From IMG/VR virus record IMGVR_UViG_3300030104_005063, positions 1 to 64,000 of that record: 64,000 bases of DNA. The stretch is one strand, 5' to 3'. Of this stretch, positions 1 through 34,519 are shown in pieces (the stretch's first letter is position 1; each line of letters opens with the position of its first letter). The notes beneath the pieces are model-generated. The model did no database searches. It was given only the letters and a program-made list of their open reading frames with translations, and was not told where the DNA came from. Origin of the DNA: a virus. Position numbers and translations under genes: made by a program.

Positions 1-2
1 TG

Positions 3-614
3 AGTTTAAAATTAGAAGAGTTAGTAGGAAAGGTTCTCACAGAAGAACAATTTGATGAAGCTGCAGGTAAGAAGGATGCTTGTTACCACAAGGTAAAGGC
101 TCGTTACGATGTATGGCCATCTGCTTATGCTAGTGGTGCTTTGGTAAAGTGTCGTAAAGTTGGTGCAAAAAATTGGGGTAACAAGAGTAAAAAGAAAGAA
201 GGTGTTAATGAAGCTAGAGGAACTTGTTGGGTAGGATATCAACAAGTCGGTATGAAAAAGAAAGGCGATAAGATGGTGCCTAATTGTGTGAAAGAAATAT
301 ACTACGAAGAAAATGGTAAGGGTTATGGTTATACATTTGAATTTGGAGCTATTGAAGAGGCTGAATATCAAGGTCGTAAGGTAAAACTCAACAAGATTAT
401 GCAAGGTGACAAAAAGAAATTTAAAGTATATGTAAAAAATCCAAAGGGTAATGTCGTAAAGGTAAACTTCGGACAAGGTGGTGATGCCAAAGGTGGGACA
501 ATGAGAATCAGAAAATCTAATCCTGAGGCTCGTAAATCATTTAGGGCAAGGCACAATTGTGATAATCCAGGACCTAAACATAAAGCTCGTTATTGGAGTT
601 GTAGAAAGTGGTAA
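3..614 (+). CDS. Modular basic virion/internal-head-like protein (5' end probably at or just before the window edge)
   Basis: The frame is open from position 3 (SLKLEELVGKVLTEEQFDEAAGKKDACYHKVKARYDVWPSAYASGALVKCRKVGAKNWGNK...), upstream of the 141 start in the ORF track. Three small Cys/Trp/Lys-rich modules resemble those of T4-like marine phages and are separated by xxE-A junctions. Confidence 0.6.
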   Translation, partial: SLKLEELVGKVLTEEQFDEAAGKKDACYHKVKARYDVWPSAYASGALVKCRKVGAKNWGNKSKKKEGVNEARGTCWVGYQQVGMKKKGDKMVPNCVKEIYYEENGKGYGYTFEFGAIEEAEYQGRKVKLNKIMQGDKKKFKVYVKNPKGNVVKVNFGQGGDAKGGTMRIRKSNPEARKSFRARHNCDNPGPKHKARYWSCRKW

Positions 615-13331: not shown

Positions 13332-14528
13332 ATGATTAAATTGGTTATCTCTAAACCTAACTGGTCTAAATCTCACCCGTTAAATGACTTAGTTTTAGCT
13401 TACGATGCTATAAAACATAAGTTAGTTTATGCTAATCATTATGAGAAGATGACTATTGGTATAGATTATCCAGCAAACGAGGCGATGTTGATTGATAATT
13501 GGAAAGCTGGATATTCTTATGATTTTGCTGGTCGTAAACAATGTTGCGCTGATATTCTAAATTATTGGATGACCAACAAACCACTCAACCATATTCAATG
13601 GGATAATTTTTACGACCAAGATGATTTCACATATTATTATCCATTAGATAAAATGATAGAACAACTATGTGAAGATGTTCCACATTATAAAGATATGACA
13701 GATTTCAATAAGTTAGATAAATTTCACGATGACTTTATAAATGCTTTCGGTGAGTTAGAATCAAATGGTATCGGAGTCAATACAGACTTTACAAAGATAT
13801 TCGGTGACCATATGTTAAAGTATATCCACAAAAAGAAGATATATCAGAACTATAACTTTTTCACAACCACATCAAGACCATCTAACTCTATTCATAATCT
13901 TAACTTTGCTGCTCTTACACAAGAACAAAGAAAGGCATTTTCGCCACTTAATGATGTATTCGTAGAATTTGATTTTGAGTCTTATCACCCAAGGTTGATT
14001 GCCAAACTAATTGACTATGACTTTGGGAATAAATCAGTCTATGGTAAGTTAGCAGAAGACTTAGGTGTGACAGAGGGAGAAGCAAAAACACTAACATTCC
14101 AAAACCTATATGGTGGTGTCAGAAAAGATATTGCTAAGATGAGTGAGTTCTTCAGAGGTGTAGAGGATTTAGTGAAAGTTTTATATGACGAATATATGAC
14201 TCGGAATGGAATCTTAACACATATTTATAAACGACCAATGAAAAGAGCTAATTTAGGTGATTTAAATGCTCAAAAGTTATTTAATTATTACATACAGGCG
14301 TATGAAACTGAAAGGAATGTTACTATCTTAAATAAACTACACACATATTTATTAGAGAGAAAGACTAACATAGTTCATTACAACTATGATAGTTTTTTAT
14401 TTGATTATGCTAAAGAAGATGGGAAAGAAACAATACATGACATCCAAAAAATATTACGACAAGATGATTTTATTATACATAGCAAAGTCGGTAACACTTA
14501 TGGGACATTAAAAAATTATGAGTTTTGA
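13332..14528 (+). CDS. Minimal family-A DNA polymerase-like protein
   Basis: TTTSRPS, motif A DFESYHPR, motif B KTLTFQNLYG, NYYIQAYE and motif C YDS; 398 aa with no recognisable exonuclease domains. Confidence 0.8.
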   Translation: MIKLVISKPNWSKSHPLNDLVLAYDAIKHKLVYANHYEKMTIGIDYPANEAMLIDNWKAGYSYDFAGRKQCCADILNYWMTNKPLNHIQWDNFYDQDDFTYYYPLDKMIEQLCEDVPHYKDMTDFNKLDKFHDDFINAFGELESNGIGVNTDFTKIFGDHMLKYIHKKKIYQNYNFFTTTSRPSNSIHNLNFAALTQEQRKAFSPLNDVFVEFDFESYHPRLIAKLIDYDFGNKSVYGKLAEDLGVTEGEAKTLTFQNLYGGVRKDIAKMSEFFRGVEDLVKVLYDEYMTRNGILTHIYKRPMKRANLGDLNAQKLFNYYIQAYETERNVTILNKLHTYLLERKTNIVHYNYDSFLFDYAKEDGKETIHDIQKILRQDDFIIHSKVGNTYGTLKNYEF

Positions 14529-17451: not shown

Positions 17452-18195
17452 ATGGACTTAGATGCTATAAAAAGCCGTCTTAATCAGTTACAGAACACAC
17501 AAACAAATGCGTTTTGGAAACCTCAACCTGGAAAATCTCAAATCAGAATTGTACCTTATAAGCACGACAAGAACAACCCGTTTAGTGAGTTGTTCTTTCA
17601 TTACAGTTTAGTTCCAAATAAAACTGTATTGTCACCACTTTCATATGGTCGTCCTGATCCTGTTCAACAATTTGCCGATAAGTTGAAATCAACTGGCAAC
17701 AAAGATGAGTGGATTCAAGGTAAGAGAATCGAACCAAAAATGAGAACTTTTGTTCCTGTAGTGGTTCGTGGTGAAGAAAACGAAGGTGTTAAGTTTTGGG
17801 GATTTGGTAAAACTGTTTATCAAGAACTTCTTGGTATCATAGCCGATCCAGACTATGGTGATATATCCGATGCTACAACAGGTCGTGATATTGTTGTTGA
17901 AAGACAAACACCTGCTGAAGCTGGTAACCAATATGGTAAGACCACCATTCGTGTCAAACCAAATGTTACAGCACTTTCCGATGATTCTAACTCACTTACC
18001 AAGTTGTTAGATGAACAACCAGACATCAAAGAGTTGTATAATGAACCAACTTTTGATGAGTTGAAAGAACATCTTAGTAACTTTCTGAATCCATCAGATT
18101 CTACAGAAGAAACAACAGAAAAAGAACCAGAAATGGTTACTACTGAAGCTTCTTCAAATGTAGAAGACGATTTCGATAAGTTATTTAATTCATAA
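17452..18195 (+). CDS. Single-stranded DNA-binding protein (gp32-like)
   Basis: FWKP..G...IRIVP, GVKFWGFGKTVYQEL, DISD..TGRDI motifs and an acidic tail EDDFDKLFNS. Confidence 0.85.
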   Translation: MDLDAIKSRLNQLQNTQTNAFWKPQPGKSQIRIVPYKHDKNNPFSELFFHYSLVPNKTVLSPLSYGRPDPVQQFADKLKSTGNKDEWIQGKRIEPKMRTFVPVVVRGEENEGVKFWGFGKTVYQELLGIIADPDYGDISDATTGRDIVVERQTPAEAGNQYGKTTIRVKPNVTALSDDSNSLTKLLDEQPDIKELYNEPTFDELKEHLSNFLNPSDSTEETTEKEPEMVTTEASSNVEDDFDKLFNS

Positions 18196-18260: not shown

Positions 18261-19358
18261 ATGTCTAATAGAGATGAATTAGCGGATATAATTGCGGGTG
18301 AACTAAACAAACAATTCAAATCAAATCAAGTTGCTTATTTCTTGGATGGTGTTCAAGAAACTCCAACTGATGTTACTGATTGGGTTGGTACAGGTTCAAC
18401 CTTGTTAGATTTGGCAATATCAAACAGACCACACGGTGGTTTAGCTGCTGGTAGGATTACAGAAATCAATGGATTAGAGGGAAGTGGTAAATCACTTATC
18501 GGTGCTCACGCTCTTGCTTCTACCCAAAGAAAAGATGGTCTGGCAGTATACATTGATACTGAATCTGCTGTTTCAAGTGAGTTCTTACAGGCTATTGGTG
18601 TGAATACTGATAGTATGTTATATGTTCACTTAGAAACAATCGAGGATATATTTGATACAATCGAAACAATAGTTACAAAAATTCGTGAATCAAGTAAAGA
18701 TAAATTGGTTACAATATTAGTCGATAGTTTGGCTGCTGCTTCTACTAAAGTAGAGATGGATGCTGACTTTGACAAAGATGGTTGGGCTACAAGTAAAGCC
18801 ATCGTTCTGTCTAAAGCTATGAGAAAGATTACACAAATGATTGCTAGACAAAAAGTTTGTTTAATCTTTACCAATCAGTTAAGACAAAAATTAGGTGTGA
18901 TGTTTGGAGATCCTTGGACTACTTCTGGTGGTAAGGCTCTTCCTTTTCATGCATCAACTCGTATTCGGTTAAAGAATATGGGACAAATCAAAGATACCAA
19001 AAAAGATACTATTGGTATCAAGATAAGAGCTCAAGTAATCAAGAACCGATTAGGTCCACCTTTGAGAAGTGCTGAGTTTCCACTTTTCTTTGATAAAGGT
19101 ATTGATGATTATGGGAGTTGGTTAACTGTAATGAAAGACCACAAGTTGGTAAAACAAGCTGGTGCTTGGTATACTTTCGTTGACCAAAATGGAGAAGAAC
19201 ACAAGTTCCAATCCAAAGACTTCGGTGCTCTTATATCCGATGTAGAAACTCAAAAATACATCTATGACTCTATCTGTGAAAAACTAATACTAAAGTATGA
19301 CTCTGCTCAACTTGGTATTGACGATGTAACTACAGAACAAGAGTTTGTTGATGAGTAG
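18261..19358 (+). CDS. recA: RecA/UvsX recombinase
   Basis: GRITEINGLEGSGKS Walker A, YIDTE, VDSLAA, FTNQLR and TTSGGKALPFHAS motifs. Confidence 0.95.
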   Translation: MSNRDELADIIAGELNKQFKSNQVAYFLDGVQETPTDVTDWVGTGSTLLDLAISNRPHGGLAAGRITEINGLEGSGKSLIGAHALASTQRKDGLAVYIDTESAVSSEFLQAIGVNTDSMLYVHLETIEDIFDTIETIVTKIRESSKDKLVTILVDSLAAASTKVEMDADFDKDGWATSKAIVLSKAMRKITQMIARQKVCLIFTNQLRQKLGVMFGDPWTTSGGKALPFHASTRIRLKNMGQIKDTKKDTIGIKIRAQVIKNRLGPPLRSAEFPLFFDKGIDDYGSWLTVMKDHKLVKQAGAWYTFVDQNGEEHKFQSKDFGALISDVETQKYIYDSICEKLILKYDSAQLGIDDVTTEQEFVDE

Positions 19359-20409
19359 TGCCAACAAGAATCTATTAAATAAAAGATTCTATGAGTTTAA
19401 GGATGAGATTGATGTAAATCCTGAAACTAAAAACTTAAACGACCATGTTCTATTGGTCGATGGTTTCAATACATTTATTCGTAGTTTCAGTGTCAATCCA
19501 TCCTTAAATGAAGATGGTGCTCATGTTGGTGGTTTGGTAGGGTTTTTAAAATCGATAAGATATACAATTAACAAGTTTAAACCAACTCGTTGTATTATTG
19601 TATTTGACGGTAAGAACTCCTCCAAACCACGACAAAAGATATATCCCCAATATAAAGCAGGTCGTAAAATTAGAAGTCGTTTGAATCGTCTTGTTGATTG
19701 GGGTGGAGGTCCTCATGATGAACGAGAAAGTATGGCTCTCCAACTTAAGAGACTTGTTGAGTATTTGGAATGTCTTCCACTAACGATTGTATCAATAGAC
19801 AACTTAGAGGCTGATGATATAATGAGTTATATCCCAAGTGTTGTTCTTAAAGATAGTAAGTTTACAATTATGTCAGCTGATAAAGACTTCTATCAGTTGG
19901 TAGATGATAGAGTGAAACTTTATTCACCTACTAAAAAAATACTCTATGATAGAGAATTAGTAAAAAAAGAGTTTGGAGTTTACCCACAAAATGTGTTAAC
20001 TTGTAGAGTGGTAGATGGAGATAAATCAGACGATATACCTGGTGTAAGAGGCATAGGTGTTAAAACCTTAATAAAAGAGTTTCCACTTTTAGTAGAGGAT
20101 AGAGAGTTTAATACCAAAGACCTTATAGACATGGCAAAATCACGAAACACAAGAATATCAAAGATGATACAGGATAATGAGTTGATAATAAAGAGGAACT
20201 ATCTTCTTATGCAGTTAGGAGATCCTGATATCAAAAATCAGACAAAACTAAAAATCGGAGATTCGGTCAGAGGAATGGCGCCAAAATTAGTAAAATATCA
20301 GTTGCAAACTTTGTTCGTAAAGGATAAATTATGGGGACAAATACCTAATTTTGACAACTGGTTAACAGAGTTTAATATCCTTGACCACTATTGGAAGAAC
20401 AAAAAATGA
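19351..20409 (+). CDS. 5'-3' exonuclease / flap endonuclease (Pol I N-terminal / T4 RNase H-like)
   Basis: LLVDGFN, VFDG, YKAGR, EADD, SADKDFYQL and GDKSDDIPGVRGIG.KT motifs. Confidence 0.92.
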   Translation: MSSANKNLLNKRFYEFKDEIDVNPETKNLNDHVLLVDGFNTFIRSFSVNPSLNEDGAHVGGLVGFLKSIRYTINKFKPTRCIIVFDGKNSSKPRQKIYPQYKAGRKIRSRLNRLVDWGGGPHDERESMALQLKRLVEYLECLPLTIVSIDNLEADDIMSYIPSVVLKDSKFTIMSADKDFYQLVDDRVKLYSPTKKILYDRELVKKEFGVYPQNVLTCRVVDGDKSDDIPGVRGIGVKTLIKEFPLLVEDREFNTKDLIDMAKSRNTRISKMIQDNELIIKRNYLLMQLGDPDIKNQTKLKIGDSVRGMAPKLVKYQLQTLFVKDKLWGQIPNFDNWLTEFNILDHYWKNKK

Positions 20410-21767
20410 GTAAGACAAAAAATATATCAGAGTTTGGATATAATTTTCAAGTAAAGTTTGTCGTATGTTTAATTAGTGATAAACTTTTTTTAGAGCAAAT
20501 TGTAGACATCTTAGATGAAAAGTATATAACTAATGATGGTTTCAAGTGGATTGTAAAAGCTATTCGTGAGTATTATCAAGAATACAAAACAAACATCACG
20601 ATGGAAGTATTTAAGATAAAGATACAAGAGATTGATTCAGATTTACTACAAGTAAATGTAAAGGACTCTTTGAAAGAAGTCTACAAACATATGGAAGCCG
20701 AAGACTTGGAATATATCAAAGATAAGGCATTAGACTTCCACAAAACACAAGTTTTAAAAGATGCTGTTATTCAATCTGCTAAGATATTAGAGGTTGATGG
20801 TAATACTGATGAAATAAAATCCCTTATCGACTCTGCTATGCAAGCTGGTGTTGAGAGAAACTTAGGACACGACTACTTACAAGATATAGAACAAAGATAT
20901 GAGGAGTCTGCTCGTGTAACATCACCAACACCTTGGGATATTATGAACGAACTGATGCAAGGTGGTTTGGGTGGTGGAGAACTTGGTGTTGTTGTGGCAC
21001 CTGCTGGTATTGGTAAGTCTTGGGTGTTAAGTGCTATGGGTGCTTATGCTTTATCACAAGGACTAAATGTAGTTCATTATACTTTGGAGTTAAACGAGGC
21101 CTATGTCGGATTAAGATATGATAGTATCTTTAGTGGTGTGGAAAGTCAGAATCTAAAATATCACAAAGAAGAAGTGATGGAAAAACTGTTCAACCTAAAA
21201 GGTAACTTGACTATTAAATACTATCCAACCAAATCTTGTACTGTTAATACACTTTCTGCTCATCTGAAAAAAGTGGTTACATTTGGTCAAAAAGTTGATA
21301 TGGTTTTAGTAGATTATGCTGATATTATGAGAGATGTTCATAAGTCAAGTGAGATGAGACATGCTCTTGGAAATATTTACGAAGACTTACGAGGTTTGGC
21401 TGGTGAGTTACAAGTTCCAATATGGACAGCAAGTCAGGCAAACAGAAGTGCTTTAGATGAAGATGTGATTGAGGCCACTAAAGTAGCTGAATCTTATGCA
21501 AAAGTAATGACAGCAGATTTCGTAATGTCGTTAAGTCGTAAGATAGAAGATAAGATAGGTAATACTGGTCGTTTTCATGTGATAAAGAACAGATTTGGTC
21601 CTGATGGATTAACTTATCCAGCTCGTATTAATACAAACATCGGTAAGATAGAGATTTTTGAAAGTAGTTCTGTTCAAGGTAAGGATGTTCAGCATAAAAT
21701 CAATAATAGAGACAACCAAACCAAACAAATGTTGTCTGCTCGTTATGAGGATTTGATGAGTGAATAG
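20406..21767 (+). CDS. Replicative DnaB-like helicase (gp41-like)
   Basis: APAGIGKS Walker A, TLEL, VDYADI, WTASQANR, ESYAK and KNRFG motifs. Confidence 0.92.
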   Translation: MSKTKNISEFGYNFQVKFVVCLISDKLFLEQIVDILDEKYITNDGFKWIVKAIREYYQEYKTNITMEVFKIKIQEIDSDLLQVNVKDSLKEVYKHMEAEDLEYIKDKALDFHKTQVLKDAVIQSAKILEVDGNTDEIKSLIDSAMQAGVERNLGHDYLQDIEQRYEESARVTSPTPWDIMNELMQGGLGGGELGVVVAPAGIGKSWVLSAMGAYALSQGLNVVHYTLELNEAYVGLRYDSIFSGVESQNLKYHKEEVMEKLFNLKGNLTIKYYPTKSCTVNTLSAHLKKVVTFGQKVDMVLVDYADIMRDVHKSSEMRHALGNIYEDLRGLAGELQVPIWTASQANRSALDEDVIEATKVAESYAKVMTADFVMSLSRKIEDKIGNTGRFHVIKNRFGPDGLTYPARINTNIGKIEIFESSSVQGKDVQHKINNRDNQTKQMLSARYEDLMSE

Positions 21768-28334: not shown

Positions 28335-30860
28335 ATGTATCAGAATATTTGGTGTGAAAAAAGAGGTGGTAATCAAGTAGAAGTTCATCTTTGGGATGAT
28401 GTTGCTGGTTATCAAAACTTTATATTTAAAAATTATGCTTATGTCCGAGATGGTGGTGGGCAATATCGTTCTATTTATGGGGATAAGTTGAAGAAAGTTA
28501 CATATTGGACAGAACAAGATTTTAAAACTGGTCGAGTCTTTGAATCAGATATTCCATTGGAAACTCGTATCTTATTAGATAGATATGAGGATTCAGATGA
28601 GCCGTCCAAAGACCACAGAGAATTATTTTTTGATATAGAGGTGGAAGTCACAGATGGTTTTCCTGAACCATCAAAAGCACAAAACAAGGTGACTTCGGTT
28701 GCCATGTATACCAAACACGATGGTAAATATCGTGTTTATGTTTTAGGAGAAGGACAAGATAATTTAAAAGACGAAGTTGATATTCGTTTTTATTCTACAG
28801 AGAATGAGTTACTCAAAGAGTTTTTAAGATATTGGATAGATGTGAAACCAACAGTTGTTACTGGTTGGAACACTAATGGTTTTGATATTCCTTACTTATA
28901 TAATCGTCTATCAAAAGTTTTAGGTGAAGAGTTTGCTAATGCTTTGTCACCGATACAAATTGTAAAATATAATCCAAACAAAAAGATGTATAGAATCGCT
29001 GGTGTTAGTTCTTTGGATTATATGGATTTATATAGAAAATTTACATACACACAACAATCAAGTTATCGTCTAGACCATATCGGAACAATAGAGGTAGGGT
29101 TAGGTAAGGTCGAGTATGAGGGAACATTAGATGACTTATATAGAGATGACATTGATAAGTTTATTGAATACAACCTAAACGATGTTGAGATAGTTAAGGC
29201 ACTTGACCAAAAGTTCAAACTCTTGGATTTGGCTCGTGCTGTATCTCACTTGGGTAGAATACCTTACGAAGAGGTATATTTTAGTTCTCGATATATTGAG
29301 GGTGCTATGTTGGTGTATCTTCGTAGTTTAGGTTTAGTTGCTCCAAGTAAAGGAGCTAATGTGACATATGATGGTTCAGAGGGTAGATTTAGTGGTGCTT
29401 ATGTTAAGTCACCGACACCAGGTCGTTATGATTGGGTATTTGATTTAGATTTAACATCTATGTATCCAAGTATCATTATGTCTTTGAATATGTCACCAGA
29501 AACTAAAATAGGTAAGATAAATGGTTGGGATGCGGAAGAATTTATTAGAGGGGAAGAAAAACACTATTCTGTAGAAAAGGATGGTAAAACTATTAGAACC
29601 TTTACGAGTGGACAACTCAAAGATTTTTTTAACAAAAATGAAATATCCATTTCATCAAATGGTGTATTGTATGACCTTACCCAAAAGGGTGTCATACCGG
29701 CAATACTTGAGAAATGGTTTAATGAAAGAGTAGAGTATAGAAAACTGGCAAAGAAGTATGGTGAAGAAGGGAATGACGAACTACATGGTTATTTTGATAG
29801 ACGACAATTGGTACAGAAGATTCTTCTAAATAGTCTGTATGGAGTTTTGGGTTTGACGGTGTTTCGATTTTATGATATTGACAATGCTGAAGGTACGACA
29901 ACGACAGGTCAAAAGCTGATTCAGTTTACAGAGAAGATTGCTAACAATTACTACAATAACATATTAGGAACGAAAGAGGATTATTGTATTTACACAGATA
30001 CAGACTCAGTTTTCTACTCTGCTCTTCCACTTGTTCAAAACAGACATCCAAATGCCGATGTCAAGGATGACAAGTTCATGACCGAACAGATTCTTGAGAT
30101 TGCTGGTGAGGTACAAGATTACATTAACAAATCTTACAATTACTTCAGTAGTAAGTTTCTAAACATCAGAGGTGACCATCGTTTTGAGATTAAACAAGAA
30201 ATGATTGCTAAGTCTGCTTTTTGGGTGACTAAGAAAAGATATGGTCAATGGATTATCAACGATGGTGGTTTGGAAGTAGAGAAACTTGATGTTAAAGGTT
30301 TGGATATTGTTCGTAGTTCATTCCCACCAGCATTTCGTGACTTCATGACTAAGGTTCTAAAAGCTATCCTTGCTAAAGTTCCAAAAGAAAAGATTGATGA
30401 GTTTATTTTGAACTTCAAGAACAATCTACAGAATGAAGAGTTAGATAAGATTGCTCTTCCAACAGGTGTCAAGGGATTGAATAAATACATTGATAAATCA
30501 AAGGGTGGTTTTCAAAGTAAAACTATGTTTACATCAATGAAGAAAGGTGCACCTGTTCACACAAAAGCCTCAGTTATCTATAATGACTTATTGAGACATT
30601 TTAAAGCTATGAATCACGAACCTATTTCAAATGGTAATAAAGTTCGTTGGGTATACCTAAAACAAAATCCCTTTAATATTGATGGGATTGCTTACAAAGG
30701 TTATGATGATCCTAAACAAATCATAGATTTCATTAATCAGTACATTGACCGAGATAAATTATTTGATAAAGCTCTTAATAAAAAGATAAAGATGTTTTAT
30801 GATGCGATGTCTTGGGATATGCCAGTAGAGAAGAAAAATACAATTGAAAAGTTTTTTTAA
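28335..30860 (+). CDS. Family-B DNA polymerase with 3'-5' exonuclease (gp43-like)
   Basis: Exonuclease motifs FFDIEV, GWN...FDIPY and YN..DV; polymerase motifs DLTSMYPS, KILLNSLYG, YTDTDS and KKRY. Confidence 0.96.
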   Translation: MYQNIWCEKRGGNQVEVHLWDDVAGYQNFIFKNYAYVRDGGGQYRSIYGDKLKKVTYWTEQDFKTGRVFESDIPLETRILLDRYEDSDEPSKDHRELFFDIEVEVTDGFPEPSKAQNKVTSVAMYTKHDGKYRVYVLGEGQDNLKDEVDIRFYSTENELLKEFLRYWIDVKPTVVTGWNTNGFDIPYLYNRLSKVLGEEFANALSPIQIVKYNPNKKMYRIAGVSSLDYMDLYRKFTYTQQSSYRLDHIGTIEVGLGKVEYEGTLDDLYRDDIDKFIEYNLNDVEIVKALDQKFKLLDLARAVSHLGRIPYEEVYFSSRYIEGAMLVYLRSLGLVAPSKGANVTYDGSEGRFSGAYVKSPTPGRYDWVFDLDLTSMYPSIIMSLNMSPETKIGKINGWDAEEFIRGEEKHYSVEKDGKTIRTFTSGQLKDFFNKNEISISSNGVLYDLTQKGVIPAILEKWFNERVEYRKLAKKYGEEGNDELHGYFDRRQLVQKILLNSLYGVLGLTVFRFYDIDNAEGTTTTGQKLIQFTEKIANNYYNNILGTKEDYCIYTDTDSVFYSALPLVQNRHPNADVKDDKFMTEQILEIAGEVQDYINKSYNYFSSKFLNIRGDHRFEIKQEMIAKSAFWVTKKRYGQWIINDGGLEVEKLDVKGLDIVRSSFPPAFRDFMTKVLKAILAKVPKEKIDEFILNFKNNLQNEELDKIALPTGVKGLNKYIDKSKGGFQSKTMFTSMKKGAPVHTKASVIYNDLLRHFKAMNHEPISNGNKVRWVYLKQNPFNIDGIAYKGYDDPKQIIDFINQYIDRDKLFDKALNKKIKMFYDAMSWDMPVEKKNTIEKFF

Positions 30861-31640: not shown

Positions 31641-32552
31641 ATGAGTTCACATGGATTATGGGTGGAGCGTTATCGTCCATCGACATTAGACACTTATGTT
31701 GGTAATGAAACTCTCAAAACAAAGGTCGAGAGGTTCATAGAGGAGCAAAATGTTCCACACCTATTATTATATGGTAGAGCCGGTGGGGGTAAAACAACCC
31801 TTGCCAAGATTATCGTAAATGCTATCGAATGTGACTATCTCTATATTAATGCTTCGGATGAACGAAACATAGACTTGGTTAGGGACAAACTTAAGAACTT
31901 TGCTTCTTCTGTTGGTTTTAAACCAAACAAAATCGTAATCTTGGATGAGGCTGATTATCTTAATGTTAATTCAGCCCAACCGGCTCTTCGTAATCTTATG
32001 GAGACTTTCTCTGCTCATTGTAGATTTATCTTGACTTGTAACTATGTTGAAAAGATAATCGATCCGATTCAGAGTAGATGTCAGACCTATAAGATTATTC
32101 CACCATCAAAGAAAGATGTGGCAGTTCACGCTAAGTATATCTTGGAAGAAGAGAATATCTCTTTTGATTTAGATGACTTGGCTCTCGTGGTAACTGCTGG
32201 TTATCCTGACTTGAGAAAGGTTATCAATGACTTACAGAGACAGGCGATTGATGGTCAGTTAAAGATAGATAAAGATGGAATGTTACATAACGAGTTCAAA
32301 CTTCAGTTCTTGGATATGATAAAACAAGGTGTTGATTTGAGAACCATTCGTAAGTTTGTAGCTGATAGTAACTTTACAGATTACACAGAGCTGTATCGTT
32401 TTCTATATGATGAGGTAGAGAATATTTCTGTGGAGAAACTACCAGAGATTATCATTGATATATCAAATGGTTCTTATCAAGATGTGTTGGTCGTGGATAA
32501 AGAGATAAATTTTATGGCTACCATCTCTAACATACTTAGGAGATTACAATGA
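31641..32552 (+). CDS. Clamp loader AAA+ subunit (gp44/RFC-like)
   Basis: LWVERYRP, GRAGGGKTT, INASDER, ILDEAD, QPALR and SRC motifs. Confidence 0.95.
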   Translation: MSSHGLWVERYRPSTLDTYVGNETLKTKVERFIEEQNVPHLLLYGRAGGGKTTLAKIIVNAIECDYLYINASDERNIDLVRDKLKNFASSVGFKPNKIVILDEADYLNVNSAQPALRNLMETFSAHCRFILTCNYVEKIIDPIQSRCQTYKIIPPSKKDVAVHAKYILEEENISFDLDDLALVVTAGYPDLRKVINDLQRQAIDGQLKIDKDGMLHNEFKLQFLDMIKQGVDLRTIRKFVADSNFTDYTELYRFLYDEVENISVEKLPEIIIDISNGSYQDVLVVDKEINFMATISNILRRLQ

Positions 32553-32788
32553 ACATGAAACCACAAAAACCATTACCACAACAACAAGTTCAAATAGACT
32601 TGAGTGATGCAGATACAATGAAATGTCAGAAGTGTGAAAATAGTATTTTCATACAAGGATATGTTATAAAGAAAATATCTGCTATCGTATCGCCTACAGG
32701 TAAAGAAGTTATCGCTCCAATTCAAGTTTTCAATTGTGGAAATTGTGGAGAGATGTTACCACTACAGGAATTAGATGAACTTATTTAA
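32549..32788 (+). CDS. Small Zn-ribbon protein
   Basis: CQKC...CGNCG. Confidence 0.7.
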   Translation: MNMKPQKPLPQQQVQIDLSDADTMKCQKCENSIFIQGYVIKKISAIVSPTGKEVIAPIQVFNCGNCGEMLPLQELDELI

Positions 32789-33194
32789 GTGGATAGATGA
32801 ACTATTCACTAAGAAAAGACCTTGGGATAGTTTTTCAGAAGAAGAACAAAAGAAGTTTAGTCCGTTTATGGTAAATCGTTATTTAAGTATGAATAATGAT
32901 TTCTTACCTATTGTTAATCACTTTCAGAAGTTGACCATTGAGGTAATGCCACATTCTGCTGTCTATAAATTCTATTGTTCCTTACTCCCAAACAAGAAAA
33001 CTTTTTTAAGGTATCTTAGTGGTAAAAAAACAAAGGTCAACGAAAAAGTTGTTCCTTTTATTCAAGAATACTTCGAGGTTAGTAAGATACAAGCTGGTGA
33101 ATATTATCAGTTGATGAATAAAGACGAATTGAAGTCTTTACTAACCAAGTATGGTAAAACAGAAAAGGAAATAAAAAAGATGGGTGTTAAATGA
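32775..33194 (+). CDS. Clamp loader small subunit (gp62-like)
   Basis: FSPFMVNRYLSM pattern; position after the gp44-like gene. Confidence 0.6.
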   Translation: MNLFKWIDELFTKKRPWDSFSEEEQKKFSPFMVNRYLSMNNDFLPIVNHFQKLTIEVMPHSAVYKFYCSLLPNKKTFLRYLSGKKTKVNEKVVPFIQEYFEVSKIQAGEYYQLMNKDELKSLLTKYGKTEKEIKKMGVK

Positions 33195-33542: not shown

Positions 33543-33920
33543 ATGAAAATAAAAGAAAGAGAACTTAATAAGTCAAGTGACACTCATCCAGTTGTAGAAC
33601 AAATGGAAAAAGAATGGCCACAGATGACTAGAGAGTTTAAGAGATTACAGAGAGAACAATATGAATTGTTTTGTAGAAAACAACATGATTATGGTCCTGG
33701 TAATATTTCAGTTGGAACTATGTTACAGACCGATGATGAAGTTCACTTATCACTTACAGGTTTGTGGTTTAGAATGAATGATAAAATTCAGAGGTTAAAG
33801 ACTTTGATTATGACCGGCAGAGAATCTGCTGTAGACGAACCATTAGAGGATGCTTATTTAGATGTATCTAACTATGGTATTATGGCAACAATCGTTAAAA
33901 ATGGTAAATGGGGTAAATAA
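33543..33920 (+). CDS. Nucleotide-modification-associated domain protein (DUF1599/Nmad1-like)
   Basis: KQHDYG..N...RMNDKIQRL...EDAYLDVSNYGI. Confidence 0.7.
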   Translation: MKIKERELNKSSDTHPVVEQMEKEWPQMTREFKRLQREQYELFCRKQHDYGPGNISVGTMLQTDDEVHLSLTGLWFRMNDKIQRLKTLIMTGRESAVDEPLEDAYLDVSNYGIMATIVKNGKWGK

Positions 33921-34519
33921 TGGAAAGACATTGGGGTGAGAAACAAAAACCAACGCCAAGAAAAGCTGGTGCTGAGGCTACTGAAAAACACATTTCAGTA
34001 CAAGATAACAAGATATATTTTTACTCTGGTGTGAGTAGAAACGCTTGTAGTGAATTAAACAAAAAAATAAGTGAGTTAGAATCTAAGGCTATAACTTTGT
34101 CCAATAGTCTCTCCATTGAACCACCACCTATTAAACTTTTCATTAATTCTGGCGGTGGAACTATCGTGAGTGGTATCGCTTCTATGGATACCATTATTAG
34201 AAGTCAAGTGCCTGTTTGGACTTATGTTGATGGTTTTTCCGCTAGTGCAGCTACATTTATGACAGTTGTTGGTAATCGTAGATTTATGAGTAGAAATTCT
34301 TACATGTTAGTTCATCAACTGTCCACCACATTTTGGGGAACATACTCTAATTTTGAAGATGAAAAACAAAATTTAGATTTGATGATGAAGAACATAAAAA
34401 ATATCTACAAGCAATATACTAAGATTCCTATGAAGAAACTTAACGAAATACTAAAACACGACTTGATGTGGGATGCTAAAACTTGTTTGGAATATGGAAT
34501 GATTGACGAGATTATATAA
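33920..34519 (+). CDS. ClpP-like serine protease
   Basis: LFINSGGG, SASAA (catalytic Ser), LVHQ (His) and D..WDA..CLEYGMIDEII. Confidence 0.85.
   Translation: MERHWGEKQKPTPRKAGAEATEKHISVQDNKIYFYSGVSRNACSELNKKISELESKAITLSNSLSIEPPPIKLFINSGGGTIVSGIASMDTIIRSQVPVWTYVDGFSASAATFMTVVGNRRFMSRNSYMLVHQLSTTFWGTYSNFEDEKQNLDLMMKNIKNIYKQYTKIPMKKLNEILKHDLMWDAKTCLEYGMIDEII

Follow-up and report, generated by a model that had tools for sequence, protein, structure and literature searches.

Why should a T4-like phage that encodes its own family-B replicative polymerase (PolB) carry a second, miniature polymerase whose active site has lost a residue regarded as invariant in family A? The question is raised by the viral record IMGVR_UViG_3300030104_005063 from IMG/VR, 100.5 kb long and rated 55% complete by CheckV, of which we analyzed the first 64 kb (the window). 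A single open reading frame (ORF) in this window encodes a protein that we refer to as mini-PolA. Here, we find that mini-PolA is a true, very divergent family-A polymerase, related to bacterial DNA polymerase I (Pol I) but of miniature size, which has His at the position of the Pol I steric gate and lacks a thumb. With moderate confidence, we propose that it fills gaps as an accessory polymerase, distributive and without proofreading, and that it would form a split miniature Pol I with a separately encoded 5'-3' exonuclease/flap endonuclease (FEN). The coordinates of all features are collected in Table 1.

Used as a single query, the window protein gave no match above threshold in Pfam, PHROG, NCBIfam or the PDB, and a search of prokaryote genomes with this one protein returned no relatives. 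Its family is nevertheless large: phmmer against 1.84 billion representatives (E up to 1e-3) yielded 931 representative clusters at 50% identity, the full-length members being mostly about 380-460 aa. A profile built from an alignment of 63 of these relatives (A1) detected Klenow among PDB sequences at an E value of 1e-9, followed by the Bst, apicoplast and Taq Pol I enzymes. Individually, 35 of the 63 matched PF00476 (best 1.5e-15) and 27 matched PHROG 17, 'DNA polymerase'. The profile scored 38.7 bits against E. coli Pol I and -0.9 against T7 DNA polymerase and gave no score for T7 RNA polymerase. Bacterial-type Pol I, and not the T7-like enzymes, is the nearer relative of the lineage. Structure prediction agrees with the family assignment. 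The AF2 model (pLDDT 88, pTM 0.89) has Pol I-type polymerases as its top Foldseek matches (E 2.6e-13 to ~1e-11), and a VIA alignment superposes 382 residues (model range 1..394) on residues 315-876 of the Bst Pol I large fragment with a Z score of 26.5 and a root-mean-square deviation of 3.7 Å. Because this overlay spans the large fragment, the whole protein corresponds to a miniature version of it, vestigial exonuclease-like stub included. A BFVD structure search with the same model recovered full-size PolAs only, at 10-20% identity. The mini-PolA lineage is purely viral and common in marine metagenomes, and its carriers are many aquatic T4-like phages.

We aligned the E. coli MG1655 polA translation to the mini-PolA family hidden Markov model (HMM). 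Motif A aligns without a gap, the family reading LVEFDFDAYHLRLIA where E. coli Pol I reads IVSADYSQIELRIMA (residues 701-715). An initial annotation, made from the nucleotide sequence, had described a PolA-like core of 398 aa with D214, K252, F256, Y260 and D353 in place, His219 at the Glu710 position, a Glu at the Arg754 position and YDS instead of HDE in motif C. The HMM alignment bears out each of these assignments, the gate residue being His and not Glu. Ten columns are invariant in A1: R182, P183, N191, D214, H219, K252, Q322, E325, Y352 and D353. In a wider alignment of 349 mini-PolA sequences, 346 of which have a residue at the gate column, the catalytic Asp residues are invariant (D214 in 346, D353 in 345 aligned sequences). 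F256 and Y260 are kept in 61 and 62 of the 63 A1 relatives and in 341 and 342 of the 346; together with K252 and the conserved G261, four of the five Pol I positions of the motif-B O-helix are thus preserved, and the Arg position differs. That column holds Y, I, E, V or L in most relatives and rarely R or K. The gate column contains His in 345 sequences, Gln in one and a gap in three (His in 63/63 in A1), so the His is a property of the whole family and not a quirk of this genome. At the H881 column Tyr is found in 344 sequences, and at the E883 column Ser in 299 and Ala in 44. R182 and Q322 are the equivalents of R668 and Q849, the primer- and template-side minor-groove readers. The kept catalytic Asp pair, the O-helix Lys, Phe and Tyr and these two minor-groove readers together argue for an active, template-directed and primer-dependent polymerase. 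The invariant E325, beside Q322, may compensate for the lost E883.

A departure from Pol I that is absent from the initial annotation is the loss of the thumb; the evidence for it comes from sequence alignment together with predicted secondary structure. Between residues 558 and 648 of Pol I the HMM alignment leaps across three profile positions, so that the thumb (559-647, ~89 residues) has no counterpart anywhere in the family, and in the AF2 model the helix of motif 1 (125-145) is followed by only ~25 residues before the strand that precedes the TGR motif. The fingers are trimmed as well: the span from D705 to K758 measures 53 residues in Pol I and 38 in mini-PolA, and that from Y766 to Q849 measures 83 and 62, respectively. 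In the predicted model, residues 1 to ~120 superpose on the vestigial 3'-5' exonuclease domain of Bst. The DxE motif is missing from this stub, whose first strand reads KLVIS. The statement of the initial annotation that no exonuclease domains are recognizable is therefore right in that there is no working proofreading domain, and needs amending in that a shrunken exonuclease-like domain is present as a fold. Most relatives conserve E/D6, H15, H36, E/D38 and D72 in this RNase-H-like stub, a set that might represent a residual active site. The subclade of the window protein has I6 and C72, and its N-terminus is 30-50 residues shorter than that of most relatives.

The genomic setting of the gene suggests what such a reduced enzyme could be for. 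In a scan of IMG/VR we obtained at least 599 pattern matches, at least 585 of them encoding mini-PolA relatives, and read the gene context of the 80 best loci. In these, mini-PolA always lies at the junction of baseplate/tail genes and a replication module. Where at least 6 kb of downstream sequence is available, a small linked protein of 131 aa in the window (p131), a gp32-type single-stranded DNA-binding protein and FEN are each encoded in 33/33 loci, DnaB in 31 and RecA in 20; the annotations of Flavobacterium phage immuto and of Microcystis phage Mel-JY01 show the same module order (mini-PolA, p131, gp32, FEN). The closest solved relatives of FEN are the 5' nuclease domains of Pol I from Taq (2.7e-18) and from mycobacteria, and T4 RNase H is not among them. 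Since a nuclease related to those of Pol I shares one module with mini-PolA, these phages encode both halves of Pol I as separate genes, and these halves accompany both bacterial-type proteins (DnaB, DnaG, RecA) and T4-type ones (PolB, clamp loader, gp32). What the data show is homology, fold, conservation of the catalytic residues, synteny and co-occurrence with PolB and primase; the activity of mini-PolA, its distributivity and its cooperation with FEN are inferred. An active, DNA-templated, primer-dependent polymerase of ~400 residues, reduced to a palm, trimmed fingers and an exonuclease-like stub, would serve as an accessory enzyme beside the PolB/clamp replisome. Without either a thumb or proofreading, it would be expected to act distributively and to suit short patches. 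FEN would remove RNA primers, or damaged or recombination-intermediate strands, and mini-PolA would fill the resulting gaps. Of the three roles that had been put forward initially, a gap-filling partner of the split 5' nuclease is the one that best fits the presence of FEN in every one of these modules.

Several points weigh against this proposal. Three canonical PolA residues are changed (E710 to His, R754 to a non-basic residue, E883 to Ser or Ala). In Klenow, Glu710 is described as the steric gate and as universally conserved in A-family polymerases, and the E710A and E710Q variants are mutators with poor fingers closing and impaired fidelity (Hohlbein et al., PMC3715850). With three such residues altered and the Klenow mutants so crippled, a plain Pol I-like mechanism is not guaranteed. 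For the maturation of Okazaki fragments, a T4-type PolB together with a FEN might in principle suffice, and the need for mini-PolA is thus not obvious. The polymerase and FEN genes are separated by several genes and by about 5 kb in the window (2.3-7.9 kb in related loci), and no longer or fused relative was found among proteins of 812-2315 aa, a search whose range left lengths of 698-811 aa outside. The tightly linked p131 plays no part in the split Pol I model, and the support for the model is computational.

Some of the same evidence can be read in favor of a polymerase dedicated to repair, translesion synthesis or recombination, with Pol theta/nu or polymerase X of African swine fever virus (ASFV) as its functional analogues; mini-PolA would then be a low-fidelity, exonuclease-free enzyme that fills gaps or extends D-loops made by RecA and gp32 instead of processing Okazaki fragments. 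A mini-PolA without proofreading and without a thumb would suit such a task, the module is shared with gp32 and RecA, and the mutator phenotype of Klenow E710 changes (PMC3715850) points in the same direction. There is also a viral precedent: ASFV Pol X is likewise minimal and thumbless, resides in a large DNA virus that replicates with PolB and is described, in the available text of one study, as a gap-filling repair enzyme (PMC5330486). Pol X belongs to family X, has an unrelated fold and shares no homology with mini-PolA, so any parallel would be a functional one. Against a dedicated repair role, RecA is missing from the module in ~40% of loci while FEN is always present; lesion-bypass features are not readable from sequence, and the reading overlaps heavily with the gap-filling explanation. 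We consider it unlikely.

A different role was suggested by the apparent lack of a primase. The initial annotation had seen no primase gene in the window and had raised the possibility that mini-PolA synthesizes primers. No primase was indeed detected in the 100.5 kb record with PF13155, PF08275 or the immuto primase protein as query. Because the record is only 55% complete, this is not evidence of absence. A DnaG-type primase of about 310-330 aa is encoded by immuto (annotated 'DNA primase, DnaG'), Mel-JY01 and the 484 kb phage LR756508 (PF13155, PF08275), all three of which carry mini-PolA. In addition, three IMG/VR genomes with mini-PolA that are 94-100% complete each encode PolB and a primase with 42-47% identity to that of immuto. 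PolB, a DnaG-type primase and mini-PolA thus occur together in 6/6 complete or near-complete relatives. In one relative (G001) the primase lies ~66 kb upstream of the polymerase, and the matching position here would fall beyond the left end of the contig. The window shows no primase because the contig is truncated. Given a canonical primase in relatives that have the gene, the primer-synthesis idea loses its main support. Mini-PolA itself has no Toprim/DNAG_N or AEP domain in Pfam or NCBIfam, and we know of no family-A DNA polymerase that initiates de novo. We regard a primase substitute as essentially refuted.

The presence of DnaG in these phages has a bearing on a further alternative, that mini-PolA is a ribonucleotide-tolerant or RNA-handling polymerase. 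In this case the His gate and the YDS motif would allow insertion of ribonucleotides, or the open, thumbless cleft would extend RNA primers made by DnaG before these are handed to PolB. In Bacillus, for comparison, DnaE extends primers ahead of PolC. Consistent with this possibility are the His itself, present in 345/346 sequences with a residue at the gate, the non-basic residue at the R754 position, the pairing of bacterial-type DnaB/DnaG with a T4-type PolB, and S354, which matches the H811-D812-S813 of T7 RNA polymerase. T7-like single-subunit RNA polymerases share the PolA-related right-hand fold, and the Ser after the motif C Asp is common to both (IHDSF in T7, YDSF in mini-PolA). The likeness does not extend to the gate, since T7 RNA polymerase (from NC_001604), which is 883 aa long and possesses promoter-recognition elements, has Gly542 at the equivalent site of motif A (D537+5, motif register) and keeps Arg627 at the R754 position. 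It was the replacement of Klenow Glu710 by the small Ala that eased accommodation of the ribose 2'-OH (PMC3715850). Because His keeps side-chain bulk beyond C-beta, unlike Gly542, His219 probably still blocks the 2'-OH and excludes ribonucleotides. F256 (= F762) and Y260 are kept as in DNA polymerases, T7 RNA polymerase escapes detection by the family profile, and the sugar preference for the primer strand is not readable from sequence. On balance, we find either form of ribonucleotide use doubtful.

The same unusual nucleotide pocket (H219 at the gate, R754 and E883 lost) could be taken as the mark of a polymerase specialized for modified nucleotides or templates, along the lines of DpoZ or YerA41, and phage PolAs specialized for modified DNA do exist according to the available text of a survey of the family (PMC10201439). 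No base-modification pathway is seen beside mini-PolA in the module, the changed residues touch the sugar, the phosphates and the metals and not the base edge, and PolB would likewise need to copy a modified genome. We judge this specialization very improbable.

The conserved neighbor that the gap-filling model leaves without a task is p131, which was found in 72 of the 80 best loci. It follows the polymerase either directly or after a variable inserted ORF of 400-830 aa; such an ORF occupies the slot in about half of the related loci and is missing from the other half. p131 is better conserved than the polymerase, with identities of 39-60% to non-close relatives (24-38% for the polymerase) and at least 89% to the nearest ones, and it has 25 invariant columns, including an invariant HRKKxxNTLYTINALN block. 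AF2 models it with confidence (pLDDT 95). Neither a family nor a specific fold emerged from comparing its profile with the PDB and PHROGs, or from Foldseek against the PDB, a wide VIA search and the ESM Atlas; these searches returned only its own unnamed viral cluster or half-domain matches of a generic ferredoxin/ACT-like kind (Z up to 6.5). It is conceivable, if rather unlikely, that the rebuilt pocket (His gate, no O-helix Arg, Ser as third carboxylate, invariant Glu325) follows a different substrate rule, such as use of rNTPs or 2'-modified NTPs or extension of RNA primers, possibly as a two-subunit enzyme in which p131 would replace the thumb.

Compared with the large fragments of bacterial Pol I (Klenow, Bst, KlenTaq), mini-PolA has a common fold of vestigial exonuclease, palm and fingers and shares motif 1, the TGR Arg, the motif A Asp, the K/F/Y/G of motif B, the N..Q of motif 6 and the motif C Asp. 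With about 180 residues fewer than the Bst large fragment, it is thumbless and has trimmed fingers. Bacterial Pol I has its 5' nuclease fused, whereas this phage encodes it as a separate gene, and a 3'-5' exonuclease domain with DxE in Pol I contrasts with a stub that lacks it. Glu710, Arg754 and HDE are replaced by His, a non-basic residue and YDS. Czernecki et al. (2023, PMC10201439) divided PolA into 19 subfamilies, seeded from PF00476-tagged UniProt entries, and, as far as the available text of that survey goes, treat position A2 as highly conserved. Three of the groups in that text, APEX, CCPol (truncated) and the exonuclease-less split T7-like PolAs, resemble mini-PolA in being phage-borne and without a functional 3'-5' exonuclease; the text describes no thumbless cluster of ~400-450 residues and none with His or another non-Glu residue at A2. 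The immuto homologue is already entered in GenBank as 'DNA polymerase family A', so membership in the superfamily is not new. What is new is a large, uncharacterized subfamily of minimal PolAs whose active-site substitutions form an unprecedented set. Searches of the literature on Immutovirus, Mel-JY01, a steric-gate His and myoviruses with both PolA and PolB found no description or characterization of the mini-PolA family.

Textbooks treat Glu710, hydrogen-bonded to Tyr766, as invariant in family A, and the universal right-hand architecture is taken to include a thumb. The large and abundant viral lineage described here strongly conserves every catalytic and minor-groove-reading residue but lacks the thumb, the gate Glu, the Arg of the O-helix and the third carboxylate. 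It constitutes a natural experiment on the minimal needs of templated DNA synthesis and on alternative ways to build sugar selection, and its size of ~400 residues could make it a small scaffold on which to engineer polymerases. Among aquatic T4-like phages, a widespread clade would run two polymerases, PolB and a split mini-Pol I, and its cultured member, Flavobacterium phage immuto, makes this two-polymerase system testable.

Table 1. Features of the mini-PolA gene and its surroundings in the window. Residue equivalences are given as mini-PolA = E. coli Pol I.
Feature	Coordinates	Strand	Evidence or remarks
Mini family-A DNA polymerase gene, 398 aa	13332..14528	+	Single ORF, ATG to TGA; profile and AF2/VIA evidence
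Shrunken exonuclease-like N-terminal domain, residues 1 to ~120	13332..13691	+	No DxE; I6, C72
Motif 1 (E143..G146, Pol I 518-558), ~25-residue stub and TGR-type motif (T180-S181-R182-P183)	13758..13880	+	R182 = R668
Motif A, DFESYHPR	13971..13994	+	Catalytic D214 = D705 (GAT 13971-13973); H219 = E710, steric gate (CAC 13986-13988); R221 = R712
Motif B / O-helix	14073..14114	+	E248 = R754; K252 = K758; F256 = F762; Y260 = Y766; G261
Motif 6	14283..14312	+	N318 = N845; Q322 = Q849; family-invariant E325
Motif C, YNYDSFLFD	14379..14405	+	Y352 = H881; catalytic D353 = D882; S354 = E883; D358
Highly charged ORF, 628 aa	14518..16404	+	Weak HNH-like motif (residues ~310-350); Pfam/PHROG HNH matches sub-threshold
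p131, 131 aa	16405..16800	+	Family unassigned; next conserved gene after the polymerase
gp32-type single-stranded DNA-binding protein	17452..18195	+	PF08804, 1.4e-15
RecA-type recombinase	18261..19358	+	PF00154, 1.8e-57
Pol I-type 5'-3' exonuclease / FEN	19345..20409	+	PF02739, 4.3e-31; proposed partner
DnaB-family replicative helicase	20391..21767	+	PF03796, TIGR00665
TonB-dependent-receptor-like protein, 922 aa	24937..27705	+	Plug, CarboxypepD_reg
Family-B replicative DNA polymerase with exonuclease domain	28335..30860	+	PF00136, 2.7e-37; PF03104, 6.5e-24
ORF in the expected slot of a gp45-type sliding clamp, 240 aa	30917..31639	+	No Pfam, PHROG or PDB sequence match
Clamp-loader large (gp44-like) and small (gp62-like) subunits	31641..33194	+	AAA, Gp44_lid; phrog_225, 3.8e-18
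Head maturation protease fragment-like gene	33920..34519		
Exonuclease, 287 aa	34519..35382	+	phrog_69, phrog_1218 (exonuclease); phrog_1706 (CRISPR/Cas system associated)

All genes of the window lie on the + strand, and its GC content is ~32%. Upstream of mini-PolA are T4-type structural genes (gp15-like, sheath, tube and baseplate). A scan for promoters and terminators around the mini-PolA gene performed no better than on shuffled sequence, and the motif ATATTTAT was not enriched. The 628-aa ORF that occupies the slot before p131 overlaps the polymerase stop by 11 nt, and the ORFs inserted in this slot in other loci have no Pfam match. The replication module continues with the gp32-type protein, RecA, the 5'-3' exonuclease, DnaB, a methyltransferase, a class II ribonucleotide reductase, the TonB-receptor-like gene, PolB and the clamp-loader subunits. 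Of the replisome listed in the initial annotation (PolB, clamp, loader, helicase and a separate 5'-3' exonuclease), every component was recovered except the clamp, for which the 240-aa ORF between PolB and the clamp loader sits in the expected place and has no match.

Three further observations concern the wider module. The TonB-dependent-receptor-like protein is encoded inside it, where its gene immediately follows that of the class II (B12-dependent) ribonucleotide reductase. Past the clamp loader, the 287-aa exonuclease adjoins the head maturation protease fragment-like gene. Finally, in a 155 kb relative (G003, the IMG/VR contig of locus L063) the PolB match is distributed over two open frames, 92572-94080 and 94814-95692, which lie ~730 nt apart and cover query residues 67-542 and 546-841; this arrangement suggests an insertion by an intron, intein or homing endonuclease, or a split gene.

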